Source of the DNA: a virus
Lineage: Duplodnaviria; Heunggongvirae; Uroviricota; Caudoviricetes
Reading direction: 5' to 3' (one strand)
DNA length: 20,577 bases
Virus record (IMG/VR): IMGVR_UViG_2695420478_000010
Shown here: piece after piece, positions 645 through 7,778 of the stretch
Layout of the letters: each line of letters opens with the position of its first letter
Numbering within the stretch: position 1 is the stretch's first letter
The notes under the pieces: generated by a model
What the model was told of the DNA's origin: nothing
The model's database searches: none
Seen by the model: only the letters and a program-made list of their open reading frames with translations
Translations under genes and position numbers: made by a program

Positions 645-950
645 TCAGTGAAGCGATCCGGCGTTATTCTTTTTCATCTCTTCCATCATTTTTTCAGTGA
701 GCATTACGCACTGAAAACCCATGTTTTTGATGTCTACGGGTTTCATGCCTTTGTCAGTGGATATCACAGGCAGAATATCCTGATACACATCGCGGTCAGG
801 GTAACTAAGCACACAAAGCGCCCATGATGCCACGGGTGAGGATCCTTCGTCTGTTTCAACCCACCAGCCTGGTGTAGCTGCGCTTATTTGCTGAATCGTG
901 ATCCGTCCGTTGTGCTTGTAAAGTTTTTCACCAAATTTTGGTTCGCTCAT
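645..950 (-). CDS. Hypothetical protein (101 aa)
   Basis: ORF with GGAGAG RBS; its ATG overlaps the stop of the upstream ORF (ATGA), indicating translational coupling. No recognisable motifs. Confidence 0.5.
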   Translation of the reverse strand: MSEPKFGEKLYKHNGRITIQQISAATPGWWVETDEGSSPVASWALCVLSYPDRDVYQDILPVISTDKGMKPVDIKNMGFQCVMLTEKMMEEMKKNNAGSLH

Positions 951-1198
951 GATTTCAACTCTCCGGTTTTAACGTTGATGGTTGTTACCTGTTCCGCTTC
1001 GGCAATCTCCCGTTCTGTCAACGTGGCAAAGTTTGCCGCTGCTGTGGTCATGAATGCGCTTATCAGGTCGGGATGTTCCTTCGCGTATCCTTCCCCTACG
1101 TGTCGGTCTATCGTTCTGATTGCCACCTTTAAGGCCAGCTCTGTTATATCTAACGCTTTATATTTCGGCTCTGTTCTGTCTCTGCGTGTTCTGGTCAT
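947..1198 (-). CDS. Hypothetical protein (about 83 aa from the ATG at 1198; the ORF track's longer start at 1231 lies in the AT-rich stretch)
   Basis: GAGGTGG RBS precedes the ATG at 1198; first gene downstream of the iteron cluster. Confidence 0.45.
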   Translation of the reverse strand: MTRTRRDRTEPKYKALDITELALKVAIRTIDRHVGEGYAKEHPDLISAFMTTAAANFATLTEREIAEAEQVTTINVKTGELKS

Positions 1199-1227
1199 TT
1201 GCCACCTCAATTTATATATATATAGAA

Positions 1228-1550
1228 ACATGTGCGGGTTATGCGGGTTATTGGGTTATCTTAGCGTGCTAACCATTTTTTACCCTTTTATATCAGCATG
1301 TTGCAAAACACCCTGTTTATTATTTGCTCACCACGTAACCCGCAAAACGCTCAAAATAACCCGCAAACGGGGTTTTTTCTGCGGGTTACGCATGACTGTC
1401 CGGTGTTACTTCAGTTATTCGCCTGCGGGTTATAATCGTGCTTTTGCGGGTTATAAATGCCCTTTTGCGGGTTACGTGCGGGTTATTGATTTCCTTTATA
1501 TTCATACACTTAATACACTTATACACAGGATAACCCGCATAACCCGCAAT
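1228..1550. repeat. Iteron cluster: about 12 copies of TGCGGGTTAY in both orientations; probable replication origin
   Basis: Copies at about 1233, 1243, 1380, 1424, 1445, 1466, 1478 (forward) and 1336, 1366, 1530, 1540 (reverse: TAACCCGCA), plus a degenerate copy near 1251; preceded by TATATATATATA at 1212-1225; immediately downstream of the primase gene. Confidence 0.6.
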
Positions 1551-1570
1551 TTTTTTCCTCACACAGGGGA

Positions 1571-3703
1571 TTAATCTTCATCATCAGGCTGGAACATCAG
1601 CACGTAAAAAACATGCTGCTTACCCCCAATCTTGCCCAGCGCCTTTTTTTTGTATCGGCGATCGCTTCCCTTCTCCAGCATTCCGGCAGCATCCAGGGCA
1701 CGCGCAAAATGCGCCGGATTAAATCCCTTCGCTATCTCACTCTCAAACACGTGCGGGAACGTGTAATAGCGCATCTCGTCATCTTCGTTGCGAATGCTCC
1801 CTTTTCTGTATCCGGCAAGCTCTTTAATCGGTAAATCACGCTCATCTGTATTGGGGTACGGAAGGTAGCGGCTAAACCCAAACGACGACAAAAACGCCTC
1901 AGCCTGTTCAACCATCTGTTTAAATTCCCTGTTACCCGTGCCGAACTCCTTCACCCAGGCATTAAAGTTATGCTGTATCGCGTCGCGGCATTCCTGCACG
2001 ACCCAGCCAGTTACATGACCGGAAAGCACAAGCGCGGCCTCCAGTATGGCGAAACGTTCACCCACGCGGTGGACCTGCTCGCCGTAACTCTCCGGTATCA
2101 GGTTGCGCCACCGTTCGCGGCATTCCCTTACCGTGTCCTTTGCCTCCTGCTGGTGGCCTGCCAGCCATTTAACCCACTCACGACCCGCCGCCCCGTGATT
2201 TGCTGTCCAGGCATCCTTTAACGCGTCAGCATGTTCCTTACCGTTGCTGTATTCGTGAAATTTCGTGGCTTTTTCCATCGGAACGTTAAGCAGTCGGACA
2301 AGCTGCCCCGCCTTAACTTTTATCCCCTCACTTTTGAGGAATGTCTCAACGTCCATTTCTCCGGTGCTGATTGCCACCGTTCGCCAGTGTTTGATCTCCC
2401 TGTTGCCGCCATCCTTCGCCCCCTGCAATTTCCCTGAACCGTTAAACAGCGTATAAGCAGACGTTGACACTTCCCGCGCATTTCCGGCCTGGCCTATCTC
2501 ATCCAGTGGTAAAAGCCCGTCATTATGGGCCTCGGCCTCATTGGCAATACCTAACGCCGTGCCGTACCAGGTCAGCCGCTGCGCGTCCGGCTCTCCCCAT
2601 AAACTTGATGCGATGTTCTGCGTGGTGGTCTTACCTGCCGATGACTGTTCGAAAAGATGCACCCCGAAGCCGTCAGCACCCACAAGGCCAATTAAAGGCG
2701 CTGCCAGTGACGTTGCCACACCCAGTATCATTGAGGCATTACCGCCAGCCAGCCGCGCCACGCTGTCGCGCCAGCCATCCGCCGTGCCCGCCACGGAATA
2801 ACCGTTAATCGCGGCGCTTTTTCCGGTAAACAGGATCGGTTTTTCAGATTCACCAATGATCGAACCGTCCGGCATGATGTACGCGCCAAAATGCCAGCCC
2901 GTTGTTGTGCTTAACTGCCATTCCTCATGGCTTCCGCTTAACTGCATCCAGTCCGCCAGGATTGCCCTGTATTTGCCGTTGGTTGTCACGTTCAGCCCGT
3001 GATCTTTAAGTAACCGCCAGCCGTCACGGTCGCCGATACCACCACACGGGATCGCCATTGTGATGACTTCATGGTTTGCGGTTTTTTTCCAGCGCATCAC
3101 GCGGTAATGCTCTTTACCGATCGTCCCCGTTCCCAGTAGTTCAAGCGGAGAACATAACCACGTCTCAGGCCGGATAATTTCGCCTGACTGCTTATCCACT
3201 TTGGGCGTTACCCAGAAAACACCATCGGCGCGACTTTCAACGCGTGGCTTTAATTCGTCATCGCTATGGCTTCCGGTATCTTTTTTCTTTACCGGAAACT
3301 CAATAACCAGACCATCAGAAAGATTCTGCCGCTCACGGGCCAGATATTCGCGCCAGTTCTCCACCTTCTGACCGTGCATACCCTCAGGATAAAAATTTGC
3401 ATCCTGTACACCAGCCGCCGCCAGCTTTTGACCAATCGCCTTGATCATTACTGGTGCAAGATGTCCGGCCCTGAATATGCGCACGGATTTTCTGCCTTCC
3501 GGCACAATTTGCAGCTTATCCAGTTCTGATAACTGCTGCTCCCCAAGCCACACAGGAGGCACATTATCGCCGGATGCGGGGCCGTCCTGCTCCTGCCACT
3601 GTTTTGCATGTGCCCACGCATCACTACCCGCGAAAATAATCACCTCTGTGTCTTTGTGTTTTATTCCGCGTGGCTGTTTTTTTACGTTCGGTGCCAGTTT
3701 CAT
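1571..3703 (-). CDS. P4-type primase/helicase (alpha-like replication protein, DUF927-type NTPase)
   Basis: 710-aa ORF with AGGGGT RBS; Walker A-like FEQSSAGKTTTQ and Walker B-like LLPLDEIG; start overlaps the upstream ORF stop (ATGA). Confidence 0.88.
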   Translation of the reverse strand: MKLAPNVKKQPRGIKHKDTEVIIFAGSDAWAHAKQWQEQDGPASGDNVPPVWLGEQQLSELDKLQIVPEGRKSVRIFRAGHLAPVMIKAIGQKLAAAGVQDANFYPEGMHGQKVENWREYLARERQNLSDGLVIEFPVKKKDTGSHSDDELKPRVESRADGVFWVTPKVDKQSGEIIRPETWLCSPLELLGTGTIGKEHYRVMRWKKTANHEVITMAIPCGGIGDRDGWRLLKDHGLNVTTNGKYRAILADWMQLSGSHEEWQLSTTTGWHFGAYIMPDGSIIGESEKPILFTGKSAAINGYSVAGTADGWRDSVARLAGGNASMILGVATSLAAPLIGLVGADGFGVHLFEQSSAGKTTTQNIASSLWGEPDAQRLTWYGTALGIANEAEAHNDGLLPLDEIGQAGNAREVSTSAYTLFNGSGKLQGAKDGGNREIKHWRTVAISTGEMDVETFLKSEGIKVKAGQLVRLLNVPMEKATKFHEYSNGKEHADALKDAWTANHGAAGREWVKWLAGHQQEAKDTVRECRERWRNLIPESYGEQVHRVGERFAILEAALVLSGHVTGWVVQECRDAIQHNFNAWVKEFGTGNREFKQMVEQAEAFLSSFGFSRYLPYPNTDERDLPIKELAGYRKGSIRNEDDEMRYYTFPHVFESEIAKGFNPAHFARALDAAGMLEKGSDRRYKKKALGKIGGKQHVFYVLMFQPDDED

Positions 3704-3999
3704 TTTTTACCCCTGAATACGTTAAGCATCTTTTTTATTTCCTGAATATTGGCGCGTGCTTTCTCCCTGCTGGTTGGTTTACTGCGGGGCGCTGCCTGTA
3801 CCAGAGAAAAATCACGCCGGAACTGATAAACAGGCATCACGCAATCATATTCGTAGCCTTCACGATGGTAGGTTACGCGCCGTTCCTCCACGCCCTTAAT
3901 CATTACCGTGCCGCCGTACTTATCGCGGTAAATATCCCCGCACATGAATTTAGTGCGAGTTTTGCCGCTGGCAGTTAAGCCAGAATATTTAAGTTTCAT
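3700..3999 (-). CDS. Hypothetical protein (99 aa), translationally coupled to the primase
   Basis: GGAGAA RBS; stop overlaps the primase ATG. No recognisable motifs. Confidence 0.55.
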   Translation of the reverse strand: MKLKYSGLTASGKTRTKFMCGDIYRDKYGGTVMIKGVEERRVTYHREGYEYDCVMPVYQFRRDFSLVQAAPRSKPTSREKARANIQEIKKMLNVFRGKK

Positions 4000-4004
4000 T
4001 ATTT

Positions 4005-4268
4005 TTATTCTCCGATAGCGTGACCTGATAAGCCGTTAATCTTCTCTGATATGCTCTCTATTTTGCTGGTTGAACTATCCAGTAATTCAGAAACGGCTAA
4101 TATTAATCTTGCGGTTGATTCATCGCGTTCATTATTCGCCAGCGACTGAAGCCACATGTTCATTACTTCGTTCGCTGCGTTGTTTAAAGATATTGCGCTG
4201 TTGGCAAGGCTTCTTAATTCACTGGTCGCCAGTTTGTTATTGTTCATAGCGTTTAAATCTCTCATCAA
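4005..4268 (-). CDS. Hypothetical protein (about 86-87 aa; start TTG 4268 or ATG 4265)
   Basis: ORF in the coupled operon; weak RBS, start uncertain. Confidence 0.45.
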   Translation of the reverse strand: MMRDLNAMNNNKLATSELRSLANSAISLNNAANEVMNMWLQSLANNERDESTARLILAVSELLDSSTSKIESISEKINGLSGHAIGE

Positions 4269-4428
4269 TTAACCACAGCGCAACACTTCCAGAAAGTTTT
4301 GCCAGAAGGCCAGCTAATGCGGATATATCACCATCATTTAATTTATCAGGGTATACCTCAAGAAGGCGGCAAATAATTTCTGTCTGGTGCGCACGTTCAG
4401 CGGCTTCGTGTAATGTAATTTCCTTCAT
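4237..4428 (-). CDS. Hypothetical protein (63 aa)
   Basis: Strong AAGAGGTG RBS; ATG overlaps the stop of the upstream ORF (TAATG). Confidence 0.5.
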   Translation of the reverse strand: MKEITLHEAAERAHQTEIICRLLEVYPDKLNDGDISALAGLLAKLSGSVALWLIDERFKRYEQ

Positions 4429-4613
4429 TAATGCACCTCTTTTAATTCATACACTGCTGAAATAATGACTTGTGATAAGCCATATTCTGATGATTCGCTT
4501 CTCACCGCAGCAATAGCCGTCTGAACATTAACAGCCTTCACATTCTGAGCGATACCAATTGTGTGGCCTAGTGGGTTAACAGCGCTGGCAAATACACGGA
4601 AGGTTTTAAGCAT
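4428..4613 (-). CDS. Hypothetical protein (about 61 aa from ATG at 4613), first gene of the primase operon
   Basis: GGGGGTG RBS 4 nt upstream of the ATG at 4613; the track's longer start at 4655 has no RBS. Confidence 0.45.
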   Translation of the reverse strand: MLKTFRVFASAVNPLGHTIGIAQNVKAVNVQTAIAAVRSESSEYGLSQVIISAVYELKEVH

Positions 4614-4937
4614 GGCACACCCCCTGACGAATACGGGCGGCAAATACAGCAACACAACCTGACGGGCAACGGCTACGCGCTTCGCGTTCCGTCCAGGCGG
4701 TTACGTGGATGATTTGAGATTCTCCGGCACTCAGTGCCAGAAAACGCCACACAAAGGCCGTTTGTGTGTGTACAAGGTGTGGTATATGATTTACAGCAAC
4801 CATAACGGCTCCTAGTTTACGTTGTTGGTTAGAAGCACTGCGAGTGGTAATGACACTTGCGGGGCTTTGCTTTTTTAAGTGCTCTTGTGTTAAGGTGACC
4901 ACCTAACAATAGAAAGGCTAATTCAATAGGTGACCAC

Positions 4938-5129
4938 TTGTCAACAATCAAACGCGATAAAAGCCCTAAAGGGGACGGGCAATCCCCACAATTCAGAATG
5001 CGAATTTCTCCAGAGCTAAAAGAGCAATTCGATAAAGAAGCACAGAGCGACGGCATAAGCCTAGCCAACTGGCTTAAAGAGTTGGGGCGTACTGAACTAA
5101 AGCGGCGCGGTATAGAACCCAAAGGATAA
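4938..5129 (+). CDS. Small ribbon-helix-helix-like protein, putative regulator (TTG start at 4938 or ATG at 4998)
   Basis: AGGTGA RBS 4 nt before the TTG; segment RMRISPELKEQFDKEAQSDGISLANWLKELGR fits an RHH (Arc/CopG-like) pattern; divergent from the primase operon. Confidence 0.4.
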   Translation: MSTIKRDKSPKGDGQSPQFRMRISPELKEQFDKEAQSDGISLANWLKELGRTELKRRGIEPKG

Positions 5130-5171
5130 AAACTATCAGCGCCGTGGTGTGAGGTATTACGGCGCATTGCT

Positions 5172-5360
5172 ATGCAGGACAACACAATGACCGATAAAGA
5201 ATTGACCAAAACATTATCACCGGCACGGAAAAGACGGCGCAGAAAGATAGAGCATGAATCAGAAAGATTCGCGCCATGTGCTTTTGCCCTTGAGCAATTC
5301 CTTAAAGAGTACAGGGAAAAGCGCTCATTGCAGGTATGGCAACGAACTGAACCAGACTGA
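5172..5360 (+). CDS. Possible small basic protein (62 aa), doubtful
   Basis: ORF following the RHH-like ORF; poor RBS; contains a KRRRRK basic patch. Confidence 0.25.
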   Translation: MQDNTMTDKELTKTLSPARKRRRRKIEHESERFAPCAFALEQFLKEYREKRSLQVWQRTEPD

Positions 5361-5424
5361 TAGCATTGCCCACCAGCCAACAACCTGGTATTCTGGATAT
5401 GCTCAAGTTTAGTGTTATGCCACT

Positions 5425-5453
5425 GGCGGCCCTCTGCGGTCGCCTTTGTTTTA
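5425..5453 (+). terminator. Candidate rho-independent terminator for the plus-strand small ORFs
   Basis: GGCGGCC / GGTCGCC stem (one G-U pair), 6-nt loop, then TTTGTTTTA. Confidence 0.35.
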
Positions 5454-5471
5454 TGTGTCATATGCCCCCCT

Positions 5472-5696
5472 TTACGCTGCCTTGCCTGAATTAATACGAT
5501 CCCGGCTTTTAACCCATTCCATAACCTCGGAAAGCAGCCAACCTACTGAACGACCACCCAGATTACGGCGTGACGGGAAATTCCCTTTTTTCTCCAGTTC
5601 GTAGCGTGTAGTGCGGCACACTCCTGTTAACTTACGGCATTCATCCTCACGGATTACGCGATCTGATAGTGATTGAAATTGTGTATTTTGATTCAT
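5472..5696 (-). CDS. alpA: AlpA-family phage transcriptional regulator / excisionase-like HTH protein
   Basis: 74-aa ORF; central region LTGVCRTTRYELEKKGNFP and C-terminal SVGWLLSEVMEWV match the AlpA/Vis (HTH_17) pattern. Confidence 0.7.
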   Translation of the reverse strand: MNQNTQFQSLSDRVIREDECRKLTGVCRTTRYELEKKGNFPSRRNLGGRSVGWLLSEVMEWVKSRDRINSGKAA

Positions 5697-5731
5697 AAAA
5701 AAACGTCCTCGAACGTTGCCGAACGAGGACG
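5697..5731 (-). terminator. Stem-loop plus T-run on the minus strand, directly abutting the alpA start codon
   Basis: CGTCCTCG (5704-5711) pairs with CGAGGACG (5724-5731), 12-nt loop, followed on the minus strand by TTTTTT and then the alpA ATG. Confidence 0.5.
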
Positions 5732-5787
5732 ATTCTAGGCGGTAGTAAAACGCCGTTTGTGTGATATCACACTACCAGCACGTGATA

Positions 5788-6561
5788 TCACTTTTTACGT
5801 TTTTGTTGAGATTCACGCCCCAAATACTTTTGCCATGTCTGCCAATGTGTTTTTGGAAATTCTATCCCTCTGGATGCAGCTATAGAATCAATTAAATCTG
5901 CTATTTTAGGTAATGATTCCGTGTCCAGGTCTACATCACCCATTTCTGGAATAAGTTTAATTAAAGAGTAAATAACCTCATTCCTTTTTGACGATGCTTT
6001 TGGGCTATCTTCTGTTATCTTCGGGAAGTCTCCCGTATTTTTTATATTATCTAAATCACTAGCCATCACACACAAATAGTTAACATCAAATTCATAACCA
6101 CCCTTACAAAAAACATACATGAGATTATCATCACCATACTTATTCGTAAGATGAGAACATTTTATATATTGTCTCATGCTAAATTCGACATCAGCAAAAA
6201 CATATGCCGGAGTATAATAAAACCCTGATAAGCTGCTAACATAATAACATTTGATAGAATTCCCTACAGGACCAATAATGGCACTATCTAAAAATTCAGT
6301 GTCACCAGTTAAACCAACTGTAAAATTACTTCCAAAAACAGCAGATTCATCATTGAAAGGATATTTTATTAATTCTTCCTCATTACAACCATTGATAAAA
6401 TGACATAATGAAAAATTGAATTTTTTAGCATCAATTTTTGGTATATATACAGAAATATTAAGAGCACCTATATATGCGTAATGATAAAGATCTTTTATTG
6501 CACAGCCTAACTTTTCTGCCGCTTCAGGTAACGGATAATAGAGTCTTTTAGGTAATTTCAT
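5788..6561 (-). CDS. Hypothetical protein (257 aa), AT-rich accessory gene translationally coupled to the integrase
   Basis: Long uninterrupted ORF in visibly AT-rich DNA; GAAGGTGG RBS inside the integrase 3' end; ATG overlaps the integrase TGA (ATGA). No motif I can recognise. Confidence 0.7.
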   Translation of the reverse strand: MKLPKRLYYPLPEAAEKLGCAIKDLYHYAYIGALNISVYIPKIDAKKFNFSLCHFINGCNEEELIKYPFNDESAVFGSNFTVGLTGDTEFLDSAIIGPVGNSIKCYYVSSLSGFYYTPAYVFADVEFSMRQYIKCSHLTNKYGDDNLMYVFCKGGYEFDVNYLCVMASDLDNIKNTGDFPKITEDSPKASSKRNEVIYSLIKLIPEMGDVDLDTESLPKIADLIDSIAASRGIEFPKTHWQTWQKYLGRESQQKRKK

Positions 6562-7778
6562 TTGGCCACCTTCAGCATAACAATATTTTCATGATTTCCA
6601 GCCAGCACATCGAGGCGCTCAACCCACAGATTCAGAGCGTCCCGCTTCGCCTGTAAATAGCGTGAATGGTTATAGGTTTTTTGCTGACCGGGCATCTGAT
6701 GCGCTGTGATGTGCTCCACGATATGCGGATCGACACCTAAATCGTTCAGCATCGTTGTAAACGTGTGGCGAAAGTCATGCAGTGACCAATGTTCCTGGTT
6801 AAGCCGCTTATGCGCATTTCGCCCATATTGCGCTACCGTGGTATCTTTTTTCAGTTCTCCGAGCAATAACCCTGTATGCCGGTTCTGATCCACCAGCTTC
6901 TGAATGAACGGCAAAATGCCATCGGGGATTGGCCTGAATATCGTTACCTTCGTTTTGCTGTGCTCTTTTGGCACTGTCCACAACATTTCTTTCAGATCCC
7001 ATTCTTTGATCTCTGAAAGTCTGACCTCTGCAGTTCTGCACCCGAACACAATCAGCAAGCGCATTAACGCGCTGTAGTAAGGCGCGAACACATCACCATC
7101 AATAGCGCGTAAAATTTCCTTTAATTCGCTGTTACTGTGCACCCTCTCGCGAATTTCTGCTCTCTTACCCACATCGCTGACGATCAAATCGTCCAGGGCA
7201 TTACTGAACGCGTAGCGTCTCCTGCGGCAGAACTTTAGCGCCTGTTTGCAGGTTTGCATGACGTGCCCCGCTGCTACTGGTGCTTTTTTTCGTACACGGT
7301 CAAAACATGCGATCCACTGCCTTGTGTCGCATTTATCAAGAGGAATTGCCCCTATATGGCAAATGATGTGCTTATCCATACGTTGCACCAGCTTTATGTA
7401 GTCTTTGCGGTTATCCTTCGCATATTCCTCCAGCCAGTAGTTAATCGCCTCCTTCACCGTAACGGGTTTTAGCGCTTCCTGTACTGTGGCGCACAACTCA
7501 TAACGGGGGTTTTTACCCTCAGCCAGCCATGCCCGGCACTGTGCGCGTTTTTCCCTTGCAGCTTTCAGCGACAATTCAGGGTAAGCCCCCAGCTTTAACC
7601 GCTCTGCGGCAACCTCACGGCCTCCCGTTCGGTACCGGAAATACCAGGTTAATTTTCCGCCTTTTGAGTGTTTAATCTCCAGCCCGCCCCCGTCGGAGTA
7701 AAAACGCTCTTTTTCTGCCTGGACAGCCGCCAATTTTTTTAATGTCGAATCGCTCAGTTTGTTTAGTGCTTTTCCCAC
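6558..7778 (-). CDS. int: Tyrosine site-specific integrase, P4-like family (GTG start)
   Basis: 406-aa ORF with AAGAGGA RBS; N-terminal arm-binding-type region (GGGLEIKHSKGGKLTWYFRYR); C-terminal catalytic region LHDFRHTF ... HSRY. Confidence 0.92.
   Translation of the reverse strand: MGKALNKLSDSTLKKLAAVQAEKERFYSDGGGLEIKHSKGGKLTWYFRYRTGGREVAAERLKLGAYPELSLKAAREKRAQCRAWLAEGKNPRYELCATVQEALKPVTVKEAINYWLEEYAKDNRKDYIKLVQRMDKHIICHIGAIPLDKCDTRQWIACFDRVRKKAPVAAGHVMQTCKQALKFCRRRRYAFSNALDDLIVSDVGKRAEIRERVHSNSELKEILRAIDGDVFAPYYSALMRLLIVFGCRTAEVRLSEIKEWDLKEMLWTVPKEHSKTKVTIFRPIPDGILPFIQKLVDQNRHTGLLLGELKKDTTVAQYGRNAHKRLNQEHWSLHDFRHTFTTMLNDLGVDPHIVEHITAHQMPGQQKTYNHSRYLQAKRDALNLWVERLDVLAGNHENIVMLKVAK

Follow-up and report, generated by a model that had tools for sequence, protein, structure and literature searches.

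A candidate immunity-like switch comprising a ribbon-helix-helix protein, paired palindromes and a predicted antisense RNA in Gram-negative phage-inducible chromosomal islands

In bacteriophages P1 and P7, the immI region has the order c4 RNA, icd and ant, while immunity of the satellite P4 is exerted by the CI RNA with seqA, seqB and seqC. The immI region of phage P22 contains Mnt and Arc, two ribbon-helix-helix (RHH) repressors, together with the overlapping promoters Pant and Pmnt and the sar antisense RNA (literature of Susskind, Sauer and McClure). The Arc tetramer binds adjacent half-operators. Gram-positive phage-inducible chromosomal islands (PICIs; i.e., SaPIs) have the master repressors Stl/Rpr, while the founding paper on Gram-negative PICIs found only the activator AlpA, whose overexpression induces the island, and called a global repressor "unclear" (PMC6092414). 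Mutation of alpA abolishes induction of the island EcCIEDL933 (10.1101/2022.09.08.507074). Among enterobacteria, virulence and defence genes travel with PICIs and capsid-forming PICIs. In Escherichia coli O157, the same island as that described here (OI-51) affects type III secretion and colonisation via RgdR (PMC3378721). Here, we analysed a 20,577-nucleotide stretch of viral DNA (hereafter the window; IMG/VR record IMGVR_UViG_2695420478_000010), of which positions 4740-5130 are likely to be the immunity-like switch of a Gram-negative PICI.

Layout of the island and its control region

Across window positions 947-5378, the island is 99.4% identical to Sp7/CP-933C/EcCIEDL933 of E. coli O157 (Sp7 being that of strain Sakai). 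This near-identity to a proven member and the gene order of int, alpA, primase-type gene and ori place it among the Gram-negative PICIs/capsid-forming PICIs of the EcCIEDL933 type. In the window, int is at 6558-7778, alpA at 5472-5696 (Pfam Phage_AlpA, 3.4e-16), the DUF927 primase gene at 1571-3703 and the iterons at 1230-1550. Sp7 carries capsid genes, and the equivalent position here lies to the left of window position 1.

The first gene of the leftward operon is an icd-like open reading frame (ORF) of 65 aa on the minus strand (4606-4803) with an AGGAG Shine-Dalgarno sequence at 4809-4813, which is followed by small ORFs, the RgdR/DUF4222 gene and the primase gene. Residues 17-60 of its product match NCBIfam NF033153 (5.8e-18; 64.7 bits at a cutoff of 25), which makes it a member of this family, and the PGAP annotation gives the same gene in relatives. 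The stop codon of the icd-like gene overlaps the next ATG (ATGCTTAA). On the plus strand, rhh (4938-5129) encodes a 63-aa protein. The earlier note had described the DNA between them as a divergent control region, a view that our results support, with an actual intergenic space of just 4804-4937. Next in the rhh operon comes orf62 (5172-5360, plus strand; phrog_21027, 1.6e-15), a variable gene in place of which other loci have a SWIM zinc-finger gene, a gene for a small membrane protein or nothing. A terminator scan placed an intrinsic terminator of the rhh-orf62 transcript at 5425-5454 on the plus strand, just ahead of the alpA stop codon. On the minus strand, no U-run follows this hairpin, and alpA transcripts are therefore not expected to end there.

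Relative to strain 10671, segment 4648-5131 has been exchanged as one block, the islands being identical elsewhere. Across loci, the cassette slot is constant, i.e., between alpA and icd. EcCICFT073 and other islands have the same layout, but their regulator is of the YlcI/YnfO type and has repeats of its own.

A 210-aa ORF on the minus strand (4829-5461) was rejected as a real gene, as it had no family match and its frame was broken in 6 of 26 relatives. Homology and frame breaks are the grounds for this rejection, because the codon-position test alone (differences of rhh from that of locus L003 at codon positions 1/2/3 number 1/2/17) does not speak against an antisense frame in which third positions are shared. 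In public annotations, a long minus-strand ORF that is probably spurious (ECs_1576 or "Icd-like pseudogene") covers rhh and orf62 and hides the module.

Predicted antisense RNA opposite the icd-like gene

A conserved plus-strand hairpin and a promoter of conserved position predict an antisense RNA of ~80 nt (~4797-4876), which the earlier note had missed. It would consist of stem-loop SL1 (4798-4830), the terminator stem SL2 (4832-4868) and a U-tail (4871-4876). The predicted RNA folds with a minimum free energy of -28.4 kcal/mol (z = -3.3). In SL1, the anti-Shine-Dalgarno sequence CUCCU (4809-4813) is in the loop and the anti-start CAU (4801-4803) in the stem. The terminator scan flagged 4838-4862; the full stem at 4832-4868 with its tail GCTTTTTT has the features of an intrinsic terminator, and the U-tails are weaker in the YlcI-type modules (CTTCGTCGTTTC). 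SL2 shows clear covariation: 97.4% of the alignment cells are paired, compensatory changes occur in 8 of the 9 pairs, and the covariation score of 0.90 compares with 0.29 in shuffles (0/500) and with ≤0.23 when the stem is slid. The two-hairpin design was found in 24 of 25 loci, and the anti-Shine-Dalgarno sequence is mostly unpaired in 18 of the 25. A covariance model (R1) matched each island once, and the match was in every case antisense to the first gene; this also holds for EcCICFT073 and for loci left out of model building.

The proposed promoter of this RNA (4762-4790, plus strand) consists of a -35 hexamer TTGTGT (4762-4767), a 17-bp spacer and a -10 hexamer TATGAT (4785-4790), and was identified by its match to the consensus. 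A -10/-35-like pair at -149 to -155 from the RHH start was found in 20 of 27 loci from ~8 unrelated sequence groups, with TATGAT, TACACT, TAGACT, TAGAAT, TATCAT or TATGCT as the -10. Given that the hexamers are in codons for conserved residues (STQT and AAINR), part of this conservation could be protein-driven.

That this promoter is a consensus match overlapping conserved codons, and that SL1 can form on both strands, would also be compatible with the hairpin and T-run being a leader structure of the leftward mRNA, or an insulator that shields the rhh promoter from stray plus-strand transcription, instead of the terminator of a small RNA. We consider this unlikely. Summed over 28 loci, the plus strand folds to -662 kcal/mol vs. 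-463 kcal/mol for the minus strand, i.e., it is ~200 kcal/mol more stable, and contains 118 G.U pairs vs. 19. A U-run follows the stem on the plus strand only, 18 of 24 sequences have G.U as the outermost pair of SL1, and the anti-Shine-Dalgarno sequence is in an apical loop of 5-7 nt. Furthermore, there is no upstream plus-strand gene in need of a terminator, and an insulator would itself still need a plus-strand transcript.

No Rfam family reached the gathering score in the window, and nothing related was found at E up to 10 in 4300-5900. An RNA of the P4 CI/P1 c4 type upstream of icd was rejected, as Rfam C4 gave no match, even with the E threshold relaxed to 10, and as the whole minus-strand leader folds no better than its shuffles (z = 0.02). 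A literature search of partial coverage (EcOnc/Esr41, OI-51/CP-933C, RHH + PICI and Pas sRNAs) found no small RNA or repressor already described at this locus; Esr41 lies in SpLE1 and not in Sp7.

RHH protein, its candidate operators and the motif shared with alpA

The ORF starting at 4938 had been described earlier as RHH-like and TTG-initiated, and both descriptions proved correct. Its product matches PHROG 228 (Arc-like repressor, 5.1e-7), and in a profile search of the PDB its residues 11-57 aligned to residues 2-48 of P22 Arc (1b28, E = 0.005). The AlphaFold2 model (pLDDT 84) has an extended segment at ~17-24 and helices at 25-37 and 42-56, and the top seven Foldseek matches in the PDB were all P22 Arc chains (probability 0.97-1.0, target-normalised TM 0.71-0.89), followed by the other RHH proteins CopG, AtaR, TacA, MazE and ParD. 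Both the fold, i.e., a beta-strand and two helices in ~45 residues, and the sequence relationship thus identify it as a member of the RHH family. A total of 54 homologues were found, and homologues start with ATG, GTG or TTG at the corresponding codon, with Ser-Thr next as here.

The sequence AGGTGACCAC does occur at 4893-4902 and 4928-4937, and both copies are parts of 12-bp palindromes. Candidate operator O1 (AGGTGACCACCT, 4893-4904) has the form AGGTG-nn-CACCT with perfect arms of 5 + 5 bp and a 2-bp centre, while candidate operator O2 (AGGTGACCACTT, 4928-4939) has one arm mismatch and overlaps the TTG start. The earlier proposal that the second copy doubles as the ribosome-binding site holds, as AGGTGA in the left half of O2, 4 nt ahead of the TTG, is the sole Shine-Dalgarno-like sequence available. 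At least two matches to AGGTGNNCACCT with ≤1 mismatch were obtained in 11 of 100 shuffles; the pair alone is therefore weak evidence, and its reality rests on comparison with related islands. In ~30 related islands from more than 10 genera, the pair is found at the same positions, 30-35 bp apart. The palindromes are at -45 (O1, -45 to -34) and -10 from the RHH start in the E. coli relatives and in 26 loci of Morganella, Yersinia, Rahnella, Erwinia, Pantoea, Serratia, Gilliamella and others.

Moreover, in six classes, each type of palindrome goes with its own version of the beta-strand with which the neighbouring 63-aa protein is predicted to read DNA. QF(R/K)MRI is paired with AGGTGnnCACCT, PFHMRI with AGGTGTACACCT, TFQ(I/M)RI with GGTACGTACC, (P/Q)YQMRL with GGTAATTACC and QYQIRL with TTGTAATTACAA; PFQFRL is paired with TGTAAT half-site repeats, the O1/O2 repeat being less regular in this class. 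Operator type tracks the beta-strand, not the overall protein identity: the protein of Yersinia locus L013 (70% identical) has the same operator type as the window, while that of Yersinia L012 (71% identical) has a different one. The conserved pair and its co-change with the beta-strand support the earlier suggestion that the repeat pair has a regulatory role linked to the RHH-like ORF, and the co-change is indirect support for an RHH dimer that would read each 12-bp palindrome with its paired beta-strands. Near alpA, no RHH operator consensus was found.

The predicted leftward promoter of the icd-to-primase operon (4915-4944, minus strand) has a -35 TTGACA (4944-4939), an 18-bp spacer and a -10 TAGCCT (4920-4915). 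O2 lies within this spacer, and the -35 lies opposite rhh codons 1-3, overlapping the RHH start codon. TTGACA is kept without a mismatch in 26 of 28 loci, including where residue 3 is a different amino acid, and the spacers are 16-18 bp long. The -10 is TATTAT, TACTAT, TGTAAT or TTTAAT in relatives and the poor TAGCCT (3/6) here, and a stricter promoter scan of 4300-6000 found no promoter. With a predicted start near 4908, O1 would span ~+4 to +16. The candidate rhh promoter (4867-4896, plus strand) has a -35 TTGCTT (4867-4872) inside the tail of the SL2 terminator, an 18-bp spacer and an extended -10 TGtTAAGGT (4888-4896) that overlaps the left half of O1. A TTGnTT -35 in the tail and a -10 at -47 to -45 recur in most loci, and the consensus is weak; this promoter is the weakest-supported part of the module.

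The RHH protein could instead be an autoregulator of its own small operon, antitoxin-like or cargo, and contribute nothing to the silencing of the replication operon. Palindromes at the protein's own promoter are typical binding sites of RHH antitoxins, source annotations name homologues "HicB family antitoxin", and in this island a second gene does follow rhh. The match to Pfam HicB (PF05534), at 20.4 bits, is below the cutoff of 21 and covers the C-terminal RHH part alone; as there is also neither a HicB N-terminal domain nor a HicA neighbour, we do not assign the protein to the HicB antitoxin family. The gene after rhh is variable and absent in about half of the loci, and the cassette is always in the slot between alpA and icd. 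O2 lies right within the spacer of the conserved, divergent TTGACA promoter and O1 just past its -10, so that binding could hardly leave the leftward promoter untouched. Pure autoregulation is thus quite unlikely.

The earlier note had also proposed that a 21-bp dyad and a 12-mer shared with the alpA upstream region mark a single regulator of both control regions. The dyad CACACAAAGGCCGTTTGTGTG is present at 4748-4768 and the 12-mer GCCGTTTGTGTG at 4757-4768 and again at 5752-5763. The dyad, however, is not in the gap, but inside the icd-like coding sequence (4606-4803, minus strand; codons His-Thr-Gln-Thr-Ala-Phe-Val-Trp, HTQTAFVW), where its right arm is the TTGTGT of the proposed antisense promoter; a scan also picked it up as a weak minus-strand site resembling a terminator. 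It is limited to loci with the same icd allele (L001, L005, L006, L010 and L026) and absent from those with the other allele (L003, L004, L002 and L007) and from all other genera, and was hence rejected as a conserved RNA or DNA signal. The L003 allele has a different GC hairpin nearby, at another distance and without a U-run. AAAACGCC precedes the 12-mer, as had been claimed, at site 1 (4741-4748, ending 8 nt ahead), where, read on the opposite strand, it gives the Trp-Arg-Phe codons conserved in Icd-like proteins, but at site 2 (5747-5754) it overlaps the 12-mer.

The alpA-side copy overlaps an arm of the palindrome GTGTGATATCACAC. In L007 (94% identical), it is altered to CACACAAACAGCA with the adjoining GTGATATCAC palindromes intact, and it is wholly missing in L004, L008 and L009, which have a near-identical AlpA and a different upstream gene. 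The two copies assort independently, as L005, L006 and L010 have the dyad only and L002 the alpA-side copy only. A third context of the motif (CACACAAACGGC(G)), downstream of orf62, was found in Sp7 and in Shigella locus L026; in L005 and L006 this copy is degenerate (CATATACACATAAGGCG) and its flanks are invariant. The window has 29 direct 12-mer repeat pairs vs. 13.6 ± 3.7 in shuffles, so that a repeated 12-mer from a whole-window scan is ordinary, and it has perfect 8-bp-stem hairpins at 6 places (11 overlapping hits) vs. 2.35 hits expected. Aligned without gaps, sites 1 and 2 match at 15 of 16 positions (AAAGGCCGTTTGTGTG vs. AAACGCCGTTTGTGTG), which was reached in 1 of 500 shuffles and in none of 476 real control windows for two 160-bp regions, a rarity that holds only had both regions been chosen beforehand.

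Despite that rarity and the third context, it is very improbable that one DNA-binding regulator, RHH or AlpA, reads these motifs to coordinate both regions, as comparison across related elements shows them to be allele-specific, mutated or independently assorting rather than conserved control signals, and as the dyad arms (CACAC...GTGTG) are opposite in orientation and different in spacing to those near alpA (GTGTG...CACAC), so that one dimer could not read both sites. Three further roles of the motif were rejected: an AlpA autoregulatory site, as the sole upstream element common to loci with near-identical AlpA is a hairpin right before the ATG; a relic of a duplicated control module, as the flanking similarity D1 (78%) lies in the 3' coding end of orf257 and the local alignment is just 16 nt; and inverted repeats bounding the rhh cassette in Sp7, as the downstream copy is degenerate in L005/L006 and the cassette is kept. 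It is barely credible that the 12-16-nt motif in common with the alpA leader is the trans-pairing seed of a longer plus-strand RNA, because the motif lacks conservation and the predicted RNA begins downstream of it.

Proposed switch and its relation to known immunity systems

Taken together, the RHH repressor with its two matching sites and the conserved, predicted antisense RNA probably keep the replication genes of the island off, and we think it likely that they form a P22 immI-like switch in Gram-negative PICIs, in which we infer the binding, the repression and the transcripts with their ends. In the proposed mechanism, RHH dimers would bind O1 (4893-4904) and O2 (4928-4939), and a leftward sigma-70 promoter would drive the icd-like gene, several small ORFs, RgdR and the primase gene. 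As O2 is in the leftward spacer and O1 would cover both the first transcribed bases of the leftward promoter and the -10/+1 region of the rhh promoter, the RHH protein would silence the replication operon and limit its own synthesis. The antisense promoter, within the first icd codons, would yield the plus-strand RNA of ~4797-4876, which is predicted to pair with the leader of the leftward mRNA and to block icd translation. Given that the genes behind icd overlap stop-to-start, such a block should lower their expression too. For induction, AlpA would have to override the RHH/RNA block; the likeliest way might be that transcription from alpA continues leftward across the rhh cassette, in which no terminator is evident on the minus strand. 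AlpA has been published as helper-induced and sufficient for induction, with no repressor needed in the published inductions. As islands are inducible by AlpA alone, the RHH protein could also be merely a modulator.

More tentatively, and with less confidence than in the switch itself, we suggest that this swappable cassette of an RHH protein, two operators and an antisense RNA may be the missing silencing/immunity system of Gram-negative PICIs, with its alleles as immunity groups and AlpA-driven antisense transcription flipping the switch. If so, immunity groups among co-resident satellites would comprise the RHH/operator classes, of which there are at least six, as well as the YlcI/YnfO-type modules, and helper-induced AlpA would flip the switch via transcription through the cassette, antisense to rhh. 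An allele-swapped silencing module would also explain the variable segment among otherwise identical islands. An allele-swapped repressor/operator pair and an antisense RNA between alpA and the replication operon would offer a concrete and cheaply testable answer to how Gram-negative PICIs stay silent.

Compared to known systems, the RHH protein shares its fold and a palindromic operator at its own promoter with RHH antitoxins and plasmid CopG-type autoregulators, but has no conserved toxin partner, and its candidate operators also overlap a second, divergent promoter. Similar to Stl/Rpr, it is a divergent regulator between the int side and a satellite replication operon, with the silence of the island as its presumed job. 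Stl proteins are, however, large helix-turn-helix proteins, while the unrelated 63-aa RHH protein would act beside the activator AlpA and the predicted antisense RNA, with no sign here of derepression by a protein of the helper phage. As in P1/P7 and P4, an Icd-family gene would be translated first, a small RNA would block its ribosome-binding site and polarity would be expected downstream. The c4 and CI RNAs are cut from the same strand as the target leader and use short repeated target boxes, whereas the RNA predicted here is cis-antisense with its own promoter and terminator. Unlike the islands, P4 has no detectable homologue of the Icd-like protein: in a search of a phage collection with this protein, the sole match was one induced satellite-like record.

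The closest parallel is with P22 immI. There, Arc and Mnt have an operator each and the operon leads to an antirepressor, while here a single RHH protein faces two like operators 30-35 bp apart, the icd-like gene comes first in an operon leading to the primase, and the module is carried by a satellite, which needs AlpA as well. The 35-bp centre-to-centre spacing of O1 and O2, as opposed to the adjacent half-operators of Arc, counts against reading the module in this way, and the predicted RNA matches no Rfam family, sar included. Both have a small RHH repressor, here a putative one, for which Arc is the closest solved relative by sequence and fold. The parallel would extend to a compact pair of opposed promoters with palindromic operators within it, predicted here, and to a short antisense RNA, likewise predicted, that is complementary to the ribosome-binding site of the gene that opens the controlled operon.

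Gene order and relatives of the island

In its left third, the window carries a phage satellite of the Gram-negative PICI type. The minus strand of this satellite encodes an integrase (6558-7778), a 257-aa protein (orf257; 5788-6561), AlpA (5472-5696; Pfam Phage_AlpA, 3.4e-16) and an operon that starts with an Icd-like ORF (4606-4803), continues through small ORFs and the gene of a DUF4222 protein homologous to RgdR/ECs1581 (3700-3999), and ends with a DUF927 primase gene (1571-3703). Iterons and then ssb follow on the same strand beyond the primase gene, and the chromosomal genes rcnR and rcnA are found from 8108 onward. The DUF4222 gene would thus be under the predicted control of the switch described below; RgdR/ECs1581 is an activator of the LEE type III secretion system (PMC3378721). 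On the 3' side of the primase gene, 1230-1550 contains at least 12 copies of TGCGGGTTA or TAACCCGCA in both orientations, which probably serve as iterons of the island's origin of replication.

Positions 947-5378 are 99.4% identical to the prophage-like element Sp7 of E. coli O157:H7 Sakai, which is also known as CP-933C, OI-51 and the capsid-forming PICI EcCIEDL933 (10.1101/2022.09.08.507074). The island is mosaic: the match to Sp7 ends at 5378, and the alpA/int module beyond it is not that of Sp7. The relatives compared were E. coli loci of 68-100% identity and 26 loci from other genera that were reached via the ribbon-helix-helix (RHH) protein.

The RHH cassette, its predicted operators and promoters

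The paired AGGTGACCAC repeats that the earlier note reported in front of rhh, a 63-aa Arc-like RHH ORF (4938-5129, plus strand), are real, as a palindrome pair is found at like positions, ~-45 and ~-10 from the RHH start and 30-35 bp apart, in every related locus. Both are 12-bp palindromes in the window (O1, AGGTG-AC-CACCT, 4893-4904; O2, AGGTG-AC-CACTT, 4928-4939). We noticed that the operator type tracks the predicted DNA-reading strand of the protein, not overall similarity or host: AGGTGnnCACCT is found with QF(R/K)MRI, AGGTGTACACCT with PFHMRI, GGTACGTACC with TFQ(I/M)RI, GGTAATTACC with (P/Q)YQMRL, TTGTAATTACAA with QYQIRL and TGTAAT half-sites with PFQFRL. The RHH proteins of the Yersinia loci L013 and L012 are each ~70% identical to that of the window, which has its operator type in common with L013, not L012. 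Among proteins with the same strand, the central 2 bp of the operators are free to vary (GACC, GGTC, GGCC). In strain 10671 (L002, 6078-6752), the segment corresponding to 4648-5131 is exchanged as a block between identical flanks, and the replacement encodes a YlcI/YnfO-type regulator accompanied by GGTATTCAC repeats of its own. At the level of sequence comparison, class-wise co-variation together with a block swap is the behavior of an immunity cassette.

The proposed TTG start of rhh is borne out by all relatives, in which this codon is ATG, GTG or TTG and Ser-Thr comes next, and rhh differs from its L003 counterpart at 1, 2 and 17 first, second and third codon positions, respectively. The protein matches the PHROG 'Arc-like repressor' family (5e-7), and a profile of 31 RHH sequences matched P22 Arc in the PDB (E=0.005). 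Its AlphaFold2 model (pLDDT 84) consists of an extended strand and two helices, with Arc as the best structural match, followed by AmrZ, CopG and RHH antitoxins. A strict HicB antitoxin was rejected, given a Pfam score below the cutoff, no extra domain and no conserved partner.

On the minus strand, rhh codons 1-3 (xTG TCA Axx) read TTGACA, and 26 of 28 loci retain this hexamer without mismatch, also where residue 3 is changed. The leftward spacer of 16-18 bp is filled by O2, and O1 lies ~10 bp past the leftward -10, over the predicted start; a repressor on both would therefore occlude the icd-to-primase promoter. This -10 is TATTAT, TACTAT, TGTAAT or TTTAAT in relatives and TAGCCT in the window, whose allele has the weakest leftward -10 in the family. 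The candidate rhh promoter is weak, with a -35 (TTGCTT, 4867-4872) in the tail of a terminator and an extended -10 that overlaps O1 in its left half; it is the best recurrent candidate across loci. A stricter consensus scan detected no promoter anywhere in the region. We infer all promoters in this region from sequence.

What follows rhh differs between loci, and roughly half of them lack a gene there altogether. This variable cargo slot (5172-5360, plus strand; also L003, L004 and L032-L036) is either empty or taken by orf62 (basic, phrog_21027), by the gene of a SWIM zinc-finger protein or by that of a small secreted or membrane protein. A long ORF antisense to rhh and orf62 (4829-5461, minus strand; ECs_1576 of Sakai, annotated by PGAP as 'Icd-like pseudogene' in relatives) is probably not a gene, as no family matched it and 6 of 26 relatives have a disrupted frame. 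Its N-terminus, MTHKTKATAEGRQW, is similar to those of Icd proteins (MACTKSTQTRPEFTW), a hint that an icd 5' end directly behind alpA received the rhh cassette as an insertion or was duplicated by it.

The dyad, the 12-mer and the alpA upstream region

The earlier note also placed a 21-bp dyad (4748-4768) between the primase operon and rhh, and took a 12-mer (4757-4768) that recurs on the alpA side (5752-5763) as a hint of one regulator coordinating both control regions. All of these strings are where they were reported to be, but the dyad is located within the Icd-like ORF and not in an intergenic region. This ORF matches its family at 5.8e-18, and its ATG follows an AGGAG Shine-Dalgarno sequence at a distance of 5 nt; the true gap is 4804-4937. 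On the minus strand the dyad reads His-Thr-Gln-Thr-Ala-Phe-Val-Trp, and AAAACGCC, when reverse-complemented, gives the Trp-Arg-Phe codons by which the Icd-like family is defined and which are conserved at the nucleotide level also in other alleles. The dyad is confined to loci with one icd allele (L001, L005, L006, L010 and L026) and is absent with the other E. coli icd allele and from all other genera compared; the amino-acid motif (S/H)TQT...F.WRF persists in loci without it. The alpA-side 12-mer is present in L002, is changed to CACACAAACAGCA in L007, where both adjoining GTGATATCAC palindromes are still perfect, and is missing with these palindromes where the upstream gene encodes a DUF6387 protein and AlpA is nearly identical. 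Given this pattern of presence across loci, the two copies assort independently. The 20.6 kb contain 29 pairs of direct 12-mer repeats versus 13.6 +/- 3.7 expected, and a repeated 12-mer in 20.6 kb is unremarkable; the 15/16 match between two control regions would be unusual only with the regions fixed in advance. The allele-bound dyad, the L007 change and the independent assortment all speak against a shared control signal. We conclude from these alignments that the motif is not under selection as a signal; chance or local sequence exchange is the best reading of the recurrence of a (CA)n-rich 12-16-mer.

Sp7 and a Shigella element contain the motif a third time. This copy, ACACACACAAACGGCG (L001 10018-10033; L026 2941-2956; plus strand, 3' of orf62), forms with the icd-internal copy a 15-bp inverted repeat around the rhh cassette. 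It is degenerate in L005 and L006, inside an otherwise invariant stretch; the C-to-T changes concentrated in this patch may reflect local conversion or slippage-prone sequence.

Between orf257 and alpA, the two perfect GTGATATCAC palindromes (5761-5770 and 5782-5791; 21 bp apart), the first of which extends to GTGTGATATCACAC, are intact in L007 amid substitutions and absent where the DUF6387 gene replaces orf257; they are likely operators for some protein of the orf257 module. A hairpin with a U-run (GUCCUCG...CGAGGAC UUUUUUU; 5701-5734, minus strand; z=-3.2) ends 1 nt before the alpA ATG (5696), contains the Shine-Dalgarno sequence GAGGA within its 3' arm and shows compensatory changes. Where AlpA is near-identical between loci, nothing else is shared by the sequences upstream of alpA; the hairpin could act as an attenuator or insulator and bear on the switching-on of alpA by helper phages.

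A predicted antisense RNA and the proposed switch

The interval between icd and O1 contains a GC-rich hairpin with a T-run (4832-4876, plus strand) that the earlier note missed. Across 26 loci its nine outer pairs are 97.4% paired, with compensatory double changes in eight of them, and the covariation is 0.90 versus 0.29 after shuffling (0/500) and at most 0.23 with slid partners. Folding both strands of each locus gave -662 kcal/mol for the plus and -463 kcal/mol for the minus strand, with 118 and 19 G.U pairs, respectively; the selected molecule is therefore probably a plus-strand RNA. No plus-strand gene lies upstream of the hairpin. Of 27 loci, 20 have a -10/-35-like pair at 149-155 nt ahead of the RHH start, and these pairs occur in ~8 unrelated sequence contexts. 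The candidate in the window is TTGTGT (4762-4767, the dyad's right arm) with TATGAT (4785-4790), and these hexamers overlap conserved codons. The predicted RNA (~4797-4876; z=-3.3) has two hairpins, a design shared by 24 of 25 loci: in SL1, the anti-start codon region (GCCAU) is paired with a conserved AUGGUYAG, and the loop of 5-7 nt displays an anti-Shine-Dalgarno CCUC or CUCC; SL2 is the terminator. A covariance model built from 24 loci and used to search 165 kb found exactly one match per island, always antisense to the first operon gene, including in five YlcI-type loci outside its training set and in the prototype EcCICFT073. None of the Rfam families matched. We therefore predict a conserved antisense RNA.

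In the proposed mechanism, binding of RHH dimers to O1 and O2 would keep the leftward promoter repressed and place rhh under autoregulation, and the antisense RNA would pair with the leftward leader and block icd translation, which should also lower expression of the downstream ORFs because the ORFs overlap stop-to-start. AlpA, which is helper-induced, self-activating and sufficient for induction (PMC6092414), would have to override this block. The rhh-orf62 terminator (5425-5454) is predicted to function on the plus strand only; we therefore conjecture that alpA transcripts might plausibly run through the cassette into icd and oppose rhh transcription on the way.

Whether Gram-negative PICIs have a repressor has been called unclear (PMC6092414), and the segment downstream of alpA is described in the literature as a variable gene of unknown function. 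The searchable papers, whose coverage is incomplete, describe neither a repressor nor an sRNA for these islands, and the switch makes the question of their silencing directly testable. By analogy, its nearest counterpart appears to be the immI region of phage P22, in which the RHH repressors Arc and Mnt act with opposed overlapping promoters and the sar antisense RNA. P1 immI and P4 immunity, in which the first gene is icd or kil-type and has its ribosome site blocked by a small RNA, are echoed here by the predicted small RNA over the ribosome site of the first gene. The island switch differs from P22 immI, however, in having one RHH protein and two like operators 30-35 bp apart, and its predicted RNA is truly cis-antisense, whereas those of P1 and P4 are processed from the same strand. 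Unlike all of these known systems, it resides in a PICI alongside AlpA.
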